This document shows positions 27,148 to 39,323 of a stretch of 64,000 nt of DNA, piece after piece. The stretch spans positions 1 to 64,000 of the forward strand of contig JBIPSI010000018.1 of assembly GCA_044070495.1 (NCBI GenBank), written 5' to 3'. The translations under genes were made by a program, and so were the position numbers. How positions within the stretch are numbered: position 1 is the first letter of the stretch; each line of letters opens with the position of its first letter. This stretch comes from Spirulina sp. (lineage in GTDB: Bacteria; Cyanobacteriota; Cyanobacteriia; Phormidesmidales; Phormidesmidaceae). The notes under the pieces were generated by a model that had not been told where the DNA came from, made no database searches, and saw nothing but the letters and a program-made list of their open reading frames with translations.

Positions 27148-29355
27148 ATGGCCGATAATCCTCGCCTTCAGCTTCTCAACATCCTAAAAGCCCTCCCTTC
27201 TCCGTTATTTAACGAGTTGCTATATGTGATTAACCCTCCGGCGGGGCTAATCGCTGGCCCAACGGCCCCCCAGGCTGACCGCGCTATCCAGCTTTTGAAC
27301 TGGGCCGAGAGTCCGCCCCAGCGTGGCTTAGTGATTATTGAAGACACACTGAAGCAGATCAATCACGTTCCCGACCCGCCAGACATCGCATCCTTAGTCG
27401 CTGATGTTCGCACCCAGGTGTATGCCGATATCAAAGCCCGGTGCGGCACGATGCGGGTGTTGGATATGGAGCAACCCATTGGCCTGGGGGATATCTATAC
27501 CAGCGTTAACATTTTGGAGAAAATCTCTGGGCGGCGGCGATTGGGCCTAGAGGAATTGCTGCAAGACGGCGACCCCGAAAACTTTGACCGTTTTTGGCTG
27601 GGCCAAGTGCGCCATAAACGCATTCCTGGGCTGCGAGCGGTGGAAGAGCACCGCCAACTGATGATTTTGGGCAAGCCGGGGGCAGGCAAAACCACCTTTA
27701 TGAAGCGGCTGGCGATTTTTTGCAACGAGGGAGACTTTCAGCCCCAGCGAGTGCCTGTGTTTGTAACGCTGAAGGAATACGCCGAGGCCGAAGGCAAGCC
27801 CAAACTGCAAGTCTTTATCCAAAACCAGTGGAAAGCCTGTGGGGCGAAGGAACCCAATGCCCTGGAAGCTATTTTGAAGGCTGGTCAAGCCCTAGTGTTG
27901 CTAGATGGCCTGGATGAAGTGCAGGAAGCCGACCATGACCGAGTGCTGCAAGACATCAAAACCTTTACCCAGCAGTTCCGAGATTGCCAGTGTGTGATTA
28001 CCTGCCGCATTGCGGCGCGGGAATACATTTTTGAGACCTTCACCGAAGTTGAAGTAGCCGACTTTGACCAAGAGCAGATCGCCGAGTTTGCGACAAAATG
28101 GTTTGAGGTCAAGCAATATCCCGACAAGAAAGATGCCTTTCTTGAGGAACTGGAAGATAATAGACCTATTCGTGAGCTAGCAATTACTCCAATTCTTTTA
28201 ACATTGCTTTGCCTGATATTTGAAGAGAAGTCTAGTTTTCCTAGAAAACGATCTGAGCTTTATCAAGAAGGAATAGATCTATTATTAAAAAAATGGGATC
28301 ACCAAAGAAATATTAAACGAGATATAGCTTACAAGAGATTATTGCTTTTACACAAGAAGGAGTTATTGTATCAGCTTGCATTTGAAACCTTTGAACAGGG
28401 CAATTACTTCTTTAAACAACTTACCGTAGAGCAACACATCATTCGCTACATTCGCAACCTACCAGAAGCCAGTGAGGATGAAGAAGCCCTGCGACTAGAC
28501 AGCGAAGCGGTACTGAAATCTATTGAGGCCCAACACGGGCTTTTGATAGAACGAGCTAGGGGAATTTACTCTTTCTCCCACCTCACTTTTCATGAATACT
28601 TCACCACCCAACACATCATCAGCCCCACCGCCGCCGTAAACCAAGCCCTAAAAAACTTGGCCACCCACATTACGGAAAAACGCTACCACGAAATCTTCTT
28701 GCTCACCGCAGAAATGCTACCCGAAGCCGATACCCTGCTCCTGCTGATGAAACGGCAAATTGATCAAATCATGCAGGATGCCCCAACCGAAGACACTAAG
28801 CTACAAGCATTTTTAGCCTGGCTACAGCAAAAAGCTGCTTCAGCACAAGCTTCCTATAAAGCTGCTGTCATTCGAGATTGCTACTACCGCCAATATACCT
28901 TTGGTCTGATCCAGAGCCTCCGATTTTCCCCTACCCTTGCCTTCAACATTGCTCTTGCCCTCGATATTGATCGCACACTCAATCGTGCTGAGCAGTTGGC
29001 GGCTGTAAGTGATCTCGAATTAATGATTAAAATTCGGGCTTTAAAGACTGAATTACCTAGACGAGATAATCGAGAAGAATTTAAGAAATGGTGGTTAGAT
29101 AAGGGCGCAACCTGGTCTGAACAACTTTGGGTTGTGATGCTTGAGCATCGAAATATCGGCCACGATTGGCAATTTAGCGAAGTCCAAAAAGAAAAGCTAC
29201 GCCAGTATTACGACGCCAACAATCTTTTAGTCGATTGCCTCAACAGCGATTGCTACGTTACCAAAGCCACCCGGCAATACATCGAAGACACCCTACTGCT
29301 GCCCCTCAGCGAAATTGAAAAATACCCCGTCCCCGATGCCCTAGCGAATCTGTAG
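27148..29355 (+). CDS. NACHT NTPase with N-terminal effector-associated (EAD-like) domain and NCH2-like C-terminus
   Basis: GKPGAGKTT, LLDGLDEV, ITCR, TPILL, FSHLTFHEYF, HRNIGHDWQFS...YYDAN.LLVDCLNSDC. Confidence 0.9.
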   Translation: MADNPRLQLLNILKALPSPLFNELLYVINPPAGLIAGPTAPQADRAIQLLNWAESPPQRGLVIIEDTLKQINHVPDPPDIASLVADVRTQVYADIKARCGTMRVLDMEQPIGLGDIYTSVNILEKISGRRRLGLEELLQDGDPENFDRFWLGQVRHKRIPGLRAVEEHRQLMILGKPGAGKTTFMKRLAIFCNEGDFQPQRVPVFVTLKEYAEAEGKPKLQVFIQNQWKACGAKEPNALEAILKAGQALVLLDGLDEVQEADHDRVLQDIKTFTQQFRDCQCVITCRIAAREYIFETFTEVEVADFDQEQIAEFATKWFEVKQYPDKKDAFLEELEDNRPIRELAITPILLTLLCLIFEEKSSFPRKRSELYQEGIDLLLKKWDHQRNIKRDIAYKRLLLLHKKELLYQLAFETFEQGNYFFKQLTVEQHIIRYIRNLPEASEDEEALRLDSEAVLKSIEAQHGLLIERARGIYSFSHLTFHEYFTTQHIISPTAAVNQALKNLATHITEKRYHEIFLLTAEMLPEADTLLLLMKRQIDQIMQDAPTEDTKLQAFLAWLQQKAASAQASYKAAVIRDCYYRQYTFGLIQSLRFSPTLAFNIALALDIDRTLNRAEQLAAVSDLELMIKIRALKTELPRRDNREEFKKWWLDKGATWSEQLWVVMLEHRNIGHDWQFSEVQKEKLRQYYDANNLLVDCLNSDCYVTKATRQYIEDTLLLPLSEIEKYPVPDALANL
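29315..29354 (+). repeat. 40-bp repeat R1 (encodes NACHT1 C-terminus)
   Basis: TTGAAAAATACCCCGTCCCCGATGCCCTAGCGAATCTGTA. Confidence 0.9.
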
Positions 29356-29995: not shown

Positions 29996-31408
29996 GTGGG
30001 CCAACTTTCCTCGTTTTTAGATGCGGCCCGACTGGTGCACGACTTGCAACAGGTCAAGGAGATTGCCCAGTCCATTAGTGGCCAACTTGATCCAACCCAG
30101 ATTGCCCACCGAGTGACGGATGCCTTGGTGCAGCGATTTGGTTGTGCCTTTGCTCGAATTTGGTTATTAGAGCCGAATCAGGTCATGCTGCGCTTAGTGG
30201 CATCTTCAGGGCTGTATACCCACACCAACGGCTCCTTTGCGCGGGTGCCCATGGGAGCCTATAAGGTGGGAAAAATTGCTCAAAATCGGGTGCCGTTTCT
30301 CAGTAATCACCTCTCAGAGGAGGCTTGGGTCAAGGATCGTCAATGGGCGCTGGATAATCACATTCAAGGCTTTGCGGGCTATCCCCTAGTGGCTGGAGAG
30401 AGAGTTCTAGGTGTTCTGGCAAGTTTTCGCCATGGGCCTTTCGAGCCAGAGTTTCTAGAGGTGTTGCAAGTGCTTTGCATGACCGTCACCGTGGCGTTGG
30501 ATGCGGCCCAGGCGACGGCCTTAGCGCCTAGAGAGGCTGGGATGCGATCTGAGTTGCTCTCGGATCAACTGGCTCAACTCCTGGGGGCGAGTCCGTTTAC
30601 CCTAGTGGGTACCGAGCGTCCTCTGAAGCCAATGGTGGCCCACCTGCTTCGACAAGTGGGCGAAACCCTCAAACAGTTGAACTGCCGCTATTGTCGCCTC
30701 ACCTATACAGCCCAGACGGTGTCTCTTGAGGCGCTTGCCGATGAGCCATCCGGTGTGAGCCTTGAGGGGGAGGAAAGGGGGAGTCCCTTGTACGGGAGGC
30801 TCAGTGCCTCTCTTTTTACCGATATTAGGCACGGGGTGATCTGTTTAGGAGGAAGCTTTGAGGTTCGATCCGTTGTGCAGCGGCAGACCTATCAACTGTC
30901 TGTAGTCCTCCCTGCGGCCCAATCCCCCCTGGTGGTGCAGGTGCAATGTCGCCAACCGCTGATTCACCAGGGCGTTGTTCACCTCGTTGCCCAAGCGGGG
31001 TTCGCCGTTGCAGACGGGGAGTCTGCGGCTATGGTGCGAATTACGGATGACCCGACAGGGCTAGGCACACTTCCCGTGGTGTGGGTCAACCAGGGCAAAG
31101 ATAGAATCCCGGCGGGCGTTGCCGCTGTGATGGATTTTGGCTGCACGGCGGAGGATCTACACACCCTCATCCACCAAGCCTTACAAGATCCTGAGGAGCA
31201 CTATCAAGGGGCTGCGCCTCTTCTGTCGGAGCGTGAGCGACAGGTGATGGCCTTGCTGGCGGATGGGCAGCGTGACCGTGCCATTGCCCAGGCATTATTT
31301 ATTAGCGAAAGCACGGTGAAGTTTCATATCAACAATAGCTTAGCTAAGCTGAAGGCTAAAAACCGTTACCAAGGGGTATACCAAGCCGTCATCCAGGGCT
31401 GGATTTAG
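29996..31408 (+). CDS. GAF + LuxR-HTH transcriptional regulator associated with the Nit1C cluster
   Basis: N-terminal GAF (FARIWLL...FAGYPL); C-terminal LSERERQVMALLADG...ISESTVKFHI. Confidence 0.85.
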   Translation: MGQLSSFLDAARLVHDLQQVKEIAQSISGQLDPTQIAHRVTDALVQRFGCAFARIWLLEPNQVMLRLVASSGLYTHTNGSFARVPMGAYKVGKIAQNRVPFLSNHLSEEAWVKDRQWALDNHIQGFAGYPLVAGERVLGVLASFRHGPFEPEFLEVLQVLCMTVTVALDAAQATALAPREAGMRSELLSDQLAQLLGASPFTLVGTERPLKPMVAHLLRQVGETLKQLNCRYCRLTYTAQTVSLEALADEPSGVSLEGEERGSPLYGRLSASLFTDIRHGVICLGGSFEVRSVVQRQTYQLSVVLPAAQSPLVVQVQCRQPLIHQGVVHLVAQAGFAVADGESAAMVRITDDPTGLGTLPVVWVNQGKDRIPAGVAAVMDFGCTAEDLHTLIHQALQDPEEHYQGAAPLLSERERQVMALLADGQRDRAIAQALFISESTVKFHINNSLAKLKAKNRYQGVYQAVIQGWI

Positions 31409-36558: not shown

Positions 36559-36639
36559 TTGAGCCATACTCTGTCCCCGATGCCATAGCGAATCTGTAAC
36601 AACAAAAGATCCCAGGGTTCTTGAAGAACCCTGGGATCT
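36559..36639 (+). repeat. 40-bp repeat R3 (36559-36598) plus 33-bp palindrome T2
   Basis: TTGAGCCATACTCTGTCCCCGATGCCATAGCGAATCTGTA then AGATCCCAGGGTTCTTGAAGAACCCTGGGATCT. Confidence 0.9.
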
Positions 36640-36699: not shown

Positions 36700-36924
36700 T
36701 TAAGCCTTGGGGTTGGTGCTGCCAATGCCCAAAAGGCCAATTAGGGTGAGGGTGCCCATTTGCCAAGTGTCCATGGCCCCCTCTAGGATGCGACTTTGGG
36801 CCTCGGTGGGGTGGGGTTGGTTGGCTAAATGCAGCGCCGTACCGCCAGAGCCGAGGGTGAGCAGTAGCACGGTGGCAAAAATGAGGTTGAAGGTGGGAGG
36901 CTTTGGGGCTTTTGAGGTTTGCAT
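36700..36924 (-). CDS. Small two-TM hypothetical protein divergent from HTH-NACHT
   Basis: 74 aa with two hydrophobic segments (FNLIFATVLLLTLGSGG; WQMGTLTLIGLLG). Confidence 0.7.
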   Translation of the reverse strand: MQTSKAPKPPTFNLIFATVLLLTLGSGGTALHLANQPHPTEAQSRILEGAMDTWQMGTLTLIGLLGIGSTNPKA

Positions 36925-36955
36925 AGTCAGTTGGTTCTAGAGGATGGACAGGAGA

Positions 36956-37089
36956 GCATGATTCAGGTTGACTTTGCCTAACTTTGATCGACTTCAAGCA
37001 ACAAGCTAGCCTTACATTCCCTTTAAAGTCAAGCTTTTGGCTCATTTTGCATGACTTAGGTTTACTTTGTCTGACTTTGCTCGTATAAT
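36956..37089 (+). promoter_or_regulatory. Sigma70 promoter overlapped by 35-bp direct repeats with 10-bp-period ACTTTG motifs
   Basis: TTTACT (37061)-17 nt-TATAAT (37084); repeats 36956-36990 and 37049-37083 are 29/35 identical. Confidence 0.7.
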
Positions 37090-37112
37090 GACGCAAACAG
37101 GCATTATTAAAC

Positions 37113-39323
37113 ATGGCTAAGAGATCACTATCCCTGTCTTCCGGGTTTACTAAGGCTGTTAGAGGCGCTCTTGCGGCACAAGGGTTGACGCAAGAAGAGT
37201 TAGCCAACATGGCGGGAGTTTCTAGGGCTTCTGTTGTGAAGTTTTTAGCTGGTCACGCTGTAGACCGCTCCATTTTCGTACGCTGCTGTTCTGCATTGGG
37301 AATAGACTGGGAGGAAGCAAGTGCAGAAGAAGCATTGCCCATGCCAAGCCTTGTAAATGTAGGCTTAGTGCAGTCTATCCGGGCAAACGTTTATTCAGAT
37401 ATCAAAGCTCGGTGCGGCACGATGCGGGTGTTGGATATGGAGCAACCCATTGGTCTGGGGGATATCTATACCAGCGTCAACATTTTGGAGAAAATCTCTG
37501 GGCGGCGGCGATTGGGTCTAGAAGATCTGCGGCAAGACTACGACCCCGAAAATTTTGACCGTTTTTTGCTGAGCCAAGTGCGCCATAAACGGATTCCTGG
37601 GCTGCAAGCAGTGGAAGAACACCGCCAACTGATGATTTTGGGTAAGCCGGGGGCAGGCAAAACCACCTTTATGAAGCGGCTGGCGATTTTGTGCAACGAG
37701 GGAGAATTTCAGCCCCAGCGGGTGCCTGTGTTTGTAACGCTGAAGGAATACGCCGAGGCCGAAGGCAGACCCAAACTGCAAACTTTTATCCAAAACCAGT
37801 GGAAAGCCTGCGGGGTGAAGGAATCCGATACCCTTGAGGCGATTTTTAAAGCTGGCCATGCCCTGGTGTTGCTGGATGGGTTGGATGAGGTGCAGGAAAA
37901 TGACCATGCTCGAGTGCTGCAAGACATCAAAACCTTTACCCAGCAGTTCCGAGATTGCCAGTGTGTGATGACCTGTCGCATTGCCGCACGGGAATACATT
38001 TTTGAAACCTTTACTGAAGTAGAAGTCGCCGACTTTAACCAAGATCAAATCGCTGAATTTGCGACGAAATGGTTTACGGCCAAGCAAGATACTAAGAAGG
38101 CAGAAACCTTTATTCAACGATTGGAAGCTAATGAACCTATTCAAGAACTGGCGACTAACCCGCTACTTTTAACCCTGTTATGTTTGGTTTTTGGTGAAGC
38201 AGCAGATTTCCCAGCTAATCGGGCCGAACTGTATAAAGAAGGTCTGGATGTGCTACTGAAAAAGTGGGATGGCAAACGTAACATCGAGCGTGATCAGATT
38301 TACAAAAAGCTGTCTCTGAAGCGTAAAGAAGACCTGCTGAGCCAGCTTGCCTTTGAAACCTTTGAACGGGGAAATTACTTCTTCAAACAAGCCGTCGTAG
38401 AGCAGCACATCATTCGCTATATCCGTAATTTGCCGGGTGCCAGTGAGGATGAAGAAGCCCTGCAACTGGACAGTGAAGCGATTTTGAAAGCTATTGAAGC
38501 CCAGCATAGCCTATTAGTAGAACGAGCCAGAGGGATCTACTCATTTTCGCACATTGTTTTTCAGGAATTCTTTACTGCTCAGCACATCGTTAGCCCCACA
38601 AAGACACTCAACCAAGCCCTAAAAAATCTAGCTACCCACATTACAGAAAGGCGCTATCGGGAAATCTTTTTTCTTACGGCAGGAATGTTGCCCGAAGCCG
38701 ATACTCTGCTCCTGCTAATGAAGCAGCAAATTGATCAAATAATGCGAGATGATCCGACCAAAGATCCCAATCTACAGGACGTTTTAAGCTGGACACAGCA
38801 AAAGACTCTCTCAGCAAAAACACCCTATAAACCCGCTGCAATCCGTGCCTTTTATTACGCTCTTGACCTCGGCCTCGACGTTGACCTGGCTCTTGATCTC
38901 GACCTTACTCTTGATCTCGACTTCGACCGTGCTGAGCAAGCCGCCGCCAGCAATCCCGAATTAAAGCTTAAAATTCAGGCGTTAAGAGTCGAATTGCCCA
39001 GTAGAGATGACCGAGAAGCCTTTGAGCAGTGGTGGTTAACCAATGGCAAAAACTGGGCCGAACGCCTCCGCACGATGATGATTGAACACCGCGATATTGG
39101 TCACGATTGGCAATTTAGCGGAGCACAACAAGAAAAGCTGCGCCAGTATTACGAAGCCAACAAGCTTTTGGTCGAATGCCTCAACAGCGATTGCTACGTT
39201 ACCAAAGCCACCCGGCAATACATCGAAGACACCCTACTGCTGCCCCTCAGCGAAATTGAAAAATACCCCTTCCCCGATGCCCTAGCGAATTTGTACCCAA
39301 CTCAATCGGAGATTGACCAATGA
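37113..39323 (+). CDS. NACHT NTPase with N-terminal XRE-type HTH and NCH2-like C-terminus
   Basis: GLTQEELANMAGVSRASVVKF HTH; GKPGAGKTT, LLDGLDEV, NPLLL, HRDIGHDWQFS; paralog of 27148-29355. Confidence 0.9.
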   Translation: MAKRSLSLSSGFTKAVRGALAAQGLTQEELANMAGVSRASVVKFLAGHAVDRSIFVRCCSALGIDWEEASAEEALPMPSLVNVGLVQSIRANVYSDIKARCGTMRVLDMEQPIGLGDIYTSVNILEKISGRRRLGLEDLRQDYDPENFDRFLLSQVRHKRIPGLQAVEEHRQLMILGKPGAGKTTFMKRLAILCNEGEFQPQRVPVFVTLKEYAEAEGRPKLQTFIQNQWKACGVKESDTLEAIFKAGHALVLLDGLDEVQENDHARVLQDIKTFTQQFRDCQCVMTCRIAAREYIFETFTEVEVADFNQDQIAEFATKWFTAKQDTKKAETFIQRLEANEPIQELATNPLLLTLLCLVFGEAADFPANRAELYKEGLDVLLKKWDGKRNIERDQIYKKLSLKRKEDLLSQLAFETFERGNYFFKQAVVEQHIIRYIRNLPGASEDEEALQLDSEAILKAIEAQHSLLVERARGIYSFSHIVFQEFFTAQHIVSPTKTLNQALKNLATHITERRYREIFFLTAGMLPEADTLLLLMKQQIDQIMRDDPTKDPNLQDVLSWTQQKTLSAKTPYKPAAIRAFYYALDLGLDVDLALDLDLTLDLDFDRAEQAAASNPELKLKIQALRVELPSRDDREAFEQWWLTNGKNWAERLRTMMIEHRDIGHDWQFSGAQQEKLRQYYEANKLLVECLNSDCYVTKATRQYIEDTLLLPLSEIEKYPFPDALANLYPTQSEIDQ
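39256..39295 (+). repeat. 40-bp repeat R4 (in NACHT2 3' end)
   Basis: TTGAAAAATACCCCTTCCCCGATGCCCTAGCGAATTTGTA. Confidence 0.9.

Follow-up and report, generated by a model that had tools for sequence, protein, structure and literature searches.

Phased direct repeats between an HTH-headed NACHT gene and a divergent small-protein gene of Spirulina sp. form a candidate operator array

MalT, a STAND activator of Escherichia coli, switches on transcription as an NTP- and signal-dependent oligomer bound to several direct-repeat boxes. For bacterial NLR-related proteins, the usual view is that a fused enzyme or adaptor domain carries out their action; a transcriptional output has been proposed for them from domain catalogues, without a named target. 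In the catalogue of Kibby et al. (bioRxiv 10.1101/2022.07.19.500537), the N-terminal modules of bacterial NACHTs include helix-turn-helix (HTH) and 'transcription regulatory domains'; the authors suggest that these adaptors may work by 'activating a transcriptional response' and note that cyanobacteria have many NACHT paralogues with swapped N-termini. Kaur et al. (2020 and 2021) describe HTH domains in effector positions, with an ECF-like HTH that points to 'a transcriptional response' in TRADD-N systems. The main texts searched describe no operator and no small membrane-protein partner for an HTH-NACHT. Here we analyse a 64,000-nucleotide stretch of Spirulina sp. (contig JBIPSI010000018.1, assembly GCA_044070495.1; hereafter the window), in which a gene for an HTH-headed NACHT protein, P0001, diverges from a gene for a 74-residue protein, P0002, across a control region that carries phased direct repeats. 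From sequence, we consider it rather likely that the two genes form a module: an HTH-headed NACHT STAND transcription switch with its own operator array, which would control both itself and the membrane-protein gene.

The architecture of P0001 agrees with the HTH-NACHT of an earlier annotation made from the DNA letters (the original prediction); HTH_3, NACHT and NCH2 all score above their Pfam cut-offs.

37113-39323 (+): P0001 gene, encoding a 736-residue HTH_3-NACHT-NCH2 STAND NTPase; Pfam, three domains above cut-offs
37170-37316 (+): Xre-type helix-turn-helix domain, residues 20-68; HTH_3 (PF01381), 29.9 bits, cut-off 23
37626-38081 (+): NACHT NTPase core, residues 172-323; PF05729, 72 bits, cut-off 26.7
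38961-39245 (+): NACHT C-terminal helical domain 2 (NCH2), residues 617-711; PF22727, 129.7 bits, cut-off 27

The NCH2 match (E = 4.7e-38) covers positions 1-96 of the 96 in the model, and this domain is the presumed sensor or regulatory end of P0001. The protein carries the Walker A motif GKPGAGKT and the Walker B signature DGLDE (LLDGLDEV), and G177, G180, G182, K183, T185 and D255-G256-L257-D258-E259 are invariant in 34 aligned homologues. A Walker A motif GxxxxGK[ST] and a Walker B followed by a D[GAS]hDE signature (in the wording of Kibby et al., 10.1101/2022.07.19.500537) mark the NACHT clade; with both signatures present and the family model matched above its cut-off, P0001 belongs to the NACHT clade of the STAND NTPases. 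Its HTH occupies the N-terminal slot in which relatives have EAD-like or TIR modules. The named anti-phage NACHT families scored far below their cut-offs (EruA, 47.4 bits against 1000; DS8, 33.9 bits against 790), and the PADLOC model PDC-S60 matches the NTPase region of P0001 only, not its full length (E = 5.1e-15).

The region between the two genes contains the following elements.

36700-36924 (-): P0002 gene, encoding the 74-residue small protein; open reading frame (ORF) and translation, conserved family
36597-36639 (-): terminator-like hairpin of 15 pairs with a T-rich tail, 3' of the small gene; stem 36639-36607, then TTTGTTGTTA
36925-37112: divergent control region of 188 bp, between the small gene (-) and the NACHT gene (+)
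36956-36990 (+): repeat block 1, three ACTT-core units at a 10-bp period (36971, 36981, 36991)
37049-37083 (+): repeat block 2, three ACTT-core units at a 10-bp period (37054, 37064, 37074)
37025-37030 (-): single inverted core copy, AAAGTC on the plus strand, part of TTGACT when read on the minus strand
37061-37089 (+): sigma-70-type promoter-like site TTTACT-17-TATAAT, 10/12 positions, from a consensus scan only

The original prediction had described this region in detail, and the description stands. The 188-bp divergent region lies where it had been placed, and a repeat search recovered the two 35-nt direct repeats, 29/35 identical (83%), with starts 93 bp apart. The ACTT cores of the predicted ACTTTG-like motifs are present at all six positions, as is the inverted AAAGTC, and the promoter-like site sits within block 2, which overlaps its -35 element and spacer. 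The units, in two blocks of three, all have the same orientation; together with the 10-bp period this would place them on one face of the helix. G+C content is 40% in the control region and 56.7% in the genome. An identity of 29/35 was never reached in 2000 mononucleotide shuffles of the 188 bp (maximum 23) or in 2000 first-order Markov simulations (maximum 25). The triple pattern ACTT-N6-ACTT-N6-ACTT occurs twice in the genome (5,313,730 bp, both strands), both times in the control region, against about 0.10 occurrences expected genome-wide. The repeats are thus real and non-random. Uniqueness of the ACTT triple to this locus fits a dedicated local regulator better than a global one, and a site for a global regulator was rejected because the pattern is found nowhere else in the genome. 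An RNA element was likewise considered and is unsupported, with no Rfam match at the gathering score and a fold z-score of +0.57 for 36925-37112.

Block 2 lies over the -35 element and spacer of the near-consensus promoter of the NACHT gene, which suggests autorepression or tight autoregulation. The end of block 1 lies 31 nt from the start codon of the small gene, a distance that would suit an activator-dependent promoter; the promoter scan found no consensus promoter for the small gene.

To place these repeats in a wider context, we fetched 79 NACHT-homologue loci with P0001 as query from one-genome-per-species contigs (locus numbers such as L010 are our own labels). The N-termini of the homologues fall into classes: an Xre-type HTH, as in P0001, a LuxR/sigma-r4-type HTH, an EAD-like domain and TIR. 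Profiles of the LuxR-type heads match VpsT (E = 0.0035) and GerE (E = 0.005) in the PDB, and in Pfam the heads match GerE in 6/19 members (best E = 1e-7), Sigma70_r4_2 in 9/19 and Sigma70_r4 in 5/19. An AlphaFold2 model of this head, with a predicted local distance difference test score (pLDDT) of 84, has VraR, DosR, LiaR, GerE, DegU and sigma region 4 as its low root-mean-square-deviation neighbours, among them HTH domains of the NarL family and of GerE; since Foldseek returned nothing against the PDB at E <= 0.001, the classification leans mainly on the profile matches.

To score upstream arrays, we took the identity among three consecutive units spaced 10 or 11 bp apart within the 200 nt before each gene. 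A score of at least 0.70 was found at 27 of 72 HTH-class loci (16/52 Xre-type and 11/20 LuxR-type), compared with 0.33% of 2399 control windows from the same loci; at 0.65 or above the figures were 37/72 and 1.9% of the control windows. Periods 10 and 11 accounted for 13 and 14 regions, and periods 7, 8, 9, 12, 13 and 14 for 2, 0, 5, 0, 0 and 0, respectively. Phased direct repeats before HTH-type homologues, whose absence the original prediction had named among its refuting outcomes, therefore recur well beyond the window. The arrays of relatives consist of 3-4 units at 10 or 11 bp and are conserved across distant genera in intergenic DNA that is otherwise non-alignable, with Nodosilinea, Acaryochloris and Nostocales as Xre-type examples. 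Across 71 loci, the 260-nt upstream stretches contain 153 copies of the core TGA[CG][TA]T on the strand of the NACHT gene and 25 on the opposite strand, and control coding windows hold 0.28 and 0.25 copies per 260 nt on the two strands. A second sample of 30 loci, drawn with the 27148-29355 paralogue as query, gave the same array pattern.

No array was found in any of the six loci with EAD-like, TIR or other N-termini, two of which share one N-terminal sequence. One of these six lies in the window itself. The gene at 27148-29355 (+), 10 kb upstream, encodes a 735-residue NACHT-NCH2 paralogue whose body is 76% identical to P0001 from residue 83, and whose N-terminus is a different, EAD-like helical domain without a Pfam match. 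Its upstream region has neither a repeat array nor a small divergent gene, and the paralogue is a natural negative control for the HTH-linked features. The NACHT body as the array binder was rejected on the same grounds: EAD-headed paralogues with a 76-81% identical body have no array. In two Nodosilinea/Leptolyngbya loci, L024 (2689-3246) and L108, the frame runs upstream of the Xre-type HTH into an EAD-like segment, suggesting a hybrid EAD plus HTH N-terminus; upstream of this hybrid-type frame there is no repeat array (score 0.45).

Period and flanking bases of the arrays differ with the class of the head. At Xre-type loci the spacing is 11 in 27/29 intervals and the core is preceded by G-(G/T)-A, and at LuxR/sigma-r4-type loci it is 10 in 21/26 intervals, with C-C before the core. 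A tree of the NACHT bodies, made with FastTree only from 92 rows without the N-terminal columns, requires at least 14-18 changes of head class. In 8 independent pairs drawn on well-supported branches, the period goes with the class in 6.3, opposes it in 0 and shows no difference in 1.7 (means of 200 pairings). Co-variation of repeat and HTH, a check named in the original prediction, holds for the period across independent domain swaps (median sign-test p of 0.031), and linkage could explain it. The recognition-helix subtype of the window is common to L030 and L078, from other genera, and an alignment of the three intergenic regions matches each of the two blocks with its counterpart and shows a conserved segment in the middle; L030 and L078 carry a different small-gene family from the window. 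Conservation of the pairing and the repeats, and the difference in repeats between HTH classes, support the view that the HTH-NACHT next to the repeats uses them as an operator array, and in this respect the original interpretation is partly supported.

The divergent pair is conserved as well. Relatives of P0002 (E <= 7.6e-14) are present in 12 of 25 same-genus genomes, the window's genome included, and 7 of the 11 other same-genus loci have a divergently adjacent NACHT homologue. The P0002-family gene lies upstream on the opposite strand in 31/79 NACHT loci, among them loci from Acaryochloris, Halomicronema, Leptothoe, Limnothrix, Floridaenema, Phormidesmis and Elainellales. Sampling was also done in reverse, starting from the small protein, with 150 further genomes drawn without bias from the class. 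Here the P0002 family is present in 25/151 genomes and 22/81 genera, the window's genome counted, and at 19/28 loci outside the window's own genome the 1.5-kb flank contains a NACHT homologue, shown to be divergent in 17 cases. Among the nine without a NACHT match in 1.5 kb, the contig end truncates an Xre-type N-terminus at one, and another carries a different HTH protein. Both directions bear out the anticipated synteny of the small gene with HTH-NACHT genes across genera.

At two same-genus loci, L010 and L016, the NACHT gene is internally deleted, and the small gene persists together with a repeat remnant. At L010 (1790-1960) and L016 (1880-2000) the first NACHT codons are fused to the last ones beside GCGATCGC (HIP1-like) sequences; in these deletion derivatives the small gene is intact and the repeat array kept or partly decayed. 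An intact small gene next to a deleted NACHT gene would fit a target that is silent without its activator. At L018 (856-1452) and L019 a P0002-family gene lies directly 3' of a gene for a 198-residue MarR-type winged-helix protein, with no NACHT neighbour, linking the small gene to a different transcription factor.

The P0002 ORF is a real conserved gene, judging from its conservation, and the terminator-like hairpin at its 3' end would make it a single-gene unit. From an alignment of 26 rows, AlphaFold2 models P0002 as a hairpin of two helices, residues 11-34 and 41-69 (pLDDT 81.9), of which the first is hydrophobic and contains GSGG. The two-transmembrane microprotein of the original prediction therefore survives as a conserved gene with a predicted helical hairpin, and it carries no family annotation: searches of Pfam (E <= 0.1), NCBIfam, PADLOC and PHROGs returned no match for P0002, and Pfam does not make it a member of PF20712 (CyanoTRADDas_TM). 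The family profile finds 74 database clusters, all unnamed or 'hypothetical protein', the named ones all cyanobacterial, and matches in the ESM Atlas are to unnamed cyanobacterial clusters only.

Other small genes take the same position at related loci. When every minus-strand ORF with a start no more than 500 nt upstream of one of the 79 NACHT genes is clustered, seven recurrent divergent families emerge, which together cover 59/79 loci; several of the 20 remaining loci have less than 600 nt of upstream sequence, and six further clusters that looked like overlapping-frame artefacts were left uncounted.

P0002 family: 27 loci by clustering and 4 by hidden Markov model only
Family of about 205 residues, Nostocales: 8 loci
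Small hydrophobic family, first: 6 loci
Small hydrophobic family, second: 6 loci
Small hydrophobic family, third: 4 loci
Small hydrophobic family, fourth: 2 loci
Family of 93-104 residues: 2 loci; matches Pfam PF20712, a cyanobacterial two-transmembrane domain

The PF20712 matches are the divergent ORFs of L091 (E = 3.9e-15) and L037 (E = 4.8e-5). The same small-gene family can be found beside either HTH class, and the array then follows the head. For P0002 and nine positional counterparts no PHROGs family (E <= 0.01) was found, and PADLOC gave no effector family for P0002 or the positional counterparts. We also compared hydrophobicity: divergent small ORFs with a Kyte-Doolittle 19-residue maximum of at least 1.7 occur at 32/62 HTH-NACHT loci and at 5/46 control long ORFs. 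This comparison was judged too crude, as the P0002 family itself falls below the threshold owing to GSGG in its first helix, and family clustering was used instead.

At L064-L071, L075 and L080 (e.g. L064:2181-2819, minus strand) the partner of the Nostocales HTH-NACHT is a conserved soluble protein of 205-212 residues with a weak, sub-threshold match to an Xre/MbcA/ParS antitoxin C-terminal domain (E = 1.9e-4); these loci keep the ATGACTT array at 11-bp spacing. On the Nostoc plasmid pNPM4, an unannotated 70-residue ORF with a hydrophobic segment (L132:1161-1373, minus strand) lies in the 565-nt gap before an annotated 'NACHT domain-containing NTPase', and about 40 nt separate that NACHT gene from an upstream repeat of 11-bp period (score 0.68).

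Taken together, the sequence features can be arranged into a working model. At rest, P0001 would occupy or touch block 2, which overlaps both the -35 element and the spacer of the near-consensus promoter of the P0001 gene, and would in this way limit its own synthesis. Once the NCH2 domain at the C-terminus had read a signal, nucleotide-driven oligomerisation would follow, putting several HTHs in parallel register and allowing cooperative binding to the array. Array binding would then activate the promoter of the divergent gene, and the 74-residue hairpin membrane protein would be the output. Arraying of the HTHs by oligomerisation, sensing of a trigger by NCH2 and membrane damage by the small protein are suggested here by analogy and by the exchangeability of the small-gene families. 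More broadly, we put forward as a tentative possibility that a widespread class of cyanobacterial NACHT sensors serves as direct, sequence-specific transcription factors, with head and array exchanged as a cassette and an exchangeable small membrane 'executioner' gene as output, so that the whole would be a transcription-coupled immune or cell-death switch. The heads concerned are the Xre type with its 11-bp arrays, the LuxR/sigma-r4 type with 10-bp arrays and the subtype of the window, with two blocks at 10 bp.

Several observations weigh against the proposed module. Of the HTH-class loci, 35/72 score below 0.65, the array being pushed upstream by an insertion (e.g. L036), reduced to two copies or missing, and a distant HTH-NACHT subfamily, which includes a paralogue on the C12 contig of the same genome and the plasmid locus L133, has no array. 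The window's own three-unit periodicity score is a modest 0.65 (shuffle p = 0.023), attained by 1.9% of the 2399 control windows, this score being a cruder measure. Loci from related species are not independent samples, and the flanking genes are housekeeping ones (6-phosphogluconate dehydrogenase, radical SAM, GNAT, FAD oxidoreductases), with no defence island. Activation of the small gene is argued only from the absence of a consensus promoter, and the overlap of block 2 with the -35 element and spacer of a near-consensus promoter suggests the geometry of a repressor. The same operator could then serve the opposite logic, with the HTH-NACHT repressing a toxic small membrane protein in a toxin-antitoxin-like manner and a trigger removing the repressor from the DNA. 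Xre-type HTH proteins are commonly repressors and antitoxins, and P0001 weakly matches the antitoxin-type HTH model TIGR03070 (E = 2.1e-4, below cut-off). An unrepressed toxin is hard to square with L010 and L016, where the small ORF stays intact although the NACHT gene is deleted, which favours activation over repression of a harmful product; a repressor also sits poorly with a small gene that has no consensus promoter in the scan. At LuxR-type loci, moreover, a -10-like hexamer (TACACT or TATACT) follows about 25-29 nt after the end of the array. Such arrays would lie just upstream of the -35 position, roughly midway between the divergent genes, a geometry that points to an activator. We therefore regard derepression of a toxin as quite unlikely.

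A further concern is that the array lies within about 150 bp of the HTH-coding DNA, so that a swap of the 5' cassette moves both and their co-variation may reflect linkage alone; the repeats could then be read by another factor or be structural, as in phased bending. In keeping with this, the TGAC/GTT core is common to the two unrelated HTH folds, where fold-specific reading of DNA would lead one to expect different cores, and L023, L036 and L048 keep the ATGA(C/G)TT array although their HTH carries an insertion and differs in its recognition helix. Recognition-helix subtypes of the Xre class tend towards words of their own, with 22/32 'SRQP' loci carrying at least two ATGA(C/G)TT and none of the other words, but the words were defined after viewing the same loci and the table is descriptive only. 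L131 is an exception to it: about 80 nt before the NACHT start it has three perfect tandem copies of an 11-bp unit (TGCCTGGGTTT), a word that differs from the usual one although the helix is of the SRQP type. Linkage alone would not be expected to keep arrays across distant genera within each class in otherwise non-aligning DNA, to leave 0/6 non-HTH relatives with an array or to make period and flanking bases class-specific, and the uniqueness of the ACTT pattern in the genome speaks against a global factor. On this evidence, reading by another factor or a structural role, with linkage alone behind the co-variation, appears quite unlikely. A different doubt concerns the output. Regulator and operator may be as proposed and the small protein no killing effector, serving rather as a membrane-bound partner, as a sensor or anchor for the NACHT protein, as a peptide with an immunity or regulatory function or as one that is exported. 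Nothing in the sequence of P0002 shows toxicity, and its N-terminal helix with the small-residue stretch GSGGTA can be read as a signal-peptide-like segment. The small gene also persists without the NACHT gene, stands behind a MarR-type regulator in two genomes and has no NACHT within 1.5 kb at 9/28 sampled loci. Set against this, at least six unrelated families of small hydrophobic ORFs and the 205-residue family stand beside homologous NACHTs, like exchangeable outputs, and one positional family matches a two-transmembrane domain whose Pfam name refers to an association with TRADD-N proteins of cyanobacteria. A non-effector role seems rather unlikely on balance.

A defence role of the HTH-NACHT module is plausible by family. 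Homologues are found on 58 cyanobacterial plasmid records, and the phage collection gave no record. Between the two NACHT paralogues of the window, a gene at 29996-31408 (+) encodes a 470-residue GAF and LuxR-type (GerE) regulator, for which no link to the module was seen. The locus and about 60 related ones offer a testable triple: an HTH-headed NACHT sensor, a candidate operator with head-specific spacing and a small membrane-protein gene as the likely output. If the proposed binding is true, it would show NLR-type oligomerisation converted into cooperative promoter recognition, provide a natural set of interchangeable head-and-operator cassettes and give several unannotated cyanobacterial small-protein families their first context. 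If the cassette reading is also true, a sensor-operator-effector triple would be fully defined and could be rebuilt in the test tube.

The locus fits, by its sequence features, the functional class of STAND regulators that act on phased direct repeats, with two sets of three same-orientation units at 10 bp near a promoter. MalT belongs to a different STAND clade: its LuxR-type HTH stands at the C-terminus, and its sensor domain is large, a superhelix in regulators of the MalT/LAL type. The likeness to MalT drawn in the original prediction can be kept for the principle of working, as an analogy to the proposed P0001 switch, but not for family membership, as P0001 is a NACHT-clade protein with an N-terminal Xre-type HTH, a NACHT NTPase and an NCH2 C-terminus. 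The AfsR/SARP-type STAND activators of Streptomyces and GutR of Bacillus subtilis share with P0001 the order of a DNA-binding domain at the N-terminus and a STAND NTPase after it. SARPs bind direct repeats of about 11-bp period next to or overlapping the -35 element; they combine an OmpR-type winged helix and BTAD with an NB-ARC-type NTPase and TPR repeats, and their targets are biosynthetic operons. In Pfam, P0001 has no Trans_reg_C, BTAD or TPR match, and NB-ARC stays below its cut-off (E = 0.014; 15.1 bits, cut-off 23.5). Unlike in SARP systems, the neighbour and presumed target of P0001 is a small membrane-protein gene rather than a biosynthetic operon.

In the LysR-type layout, regulator and target diverge from one control region and the operator overlaps the regulator's own promoter. 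The P0001/P0002 locus has the same divergent arrangement, whereas the protein family is different, the repeats are phased direct repeats and not dyads, and the regulator includes an NLR-type NTPase switch. PF20712 offers a parallel for the partner: it too is a small two-helix membrane protein beside a conflict-system-type signalling protein in cyanobacteria, although P0002 does not match it and only the positional counterparts in L091 and L037 do. The closest relatives in overall design are the NACHT proteins of Kibby et al., whose tripartite layout of an N-terminal output domain, NACHT and a short C-terminal helical NCH, as given in the text of that study, is also that of P0001. HTH-NACHT architectures had thus already been catalogued. 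To the HTH-type NACHTs described there, the present locus and its relatives add a candidate operator array, a period specific to the class of the head and a conserved divergent gene for a small protein.

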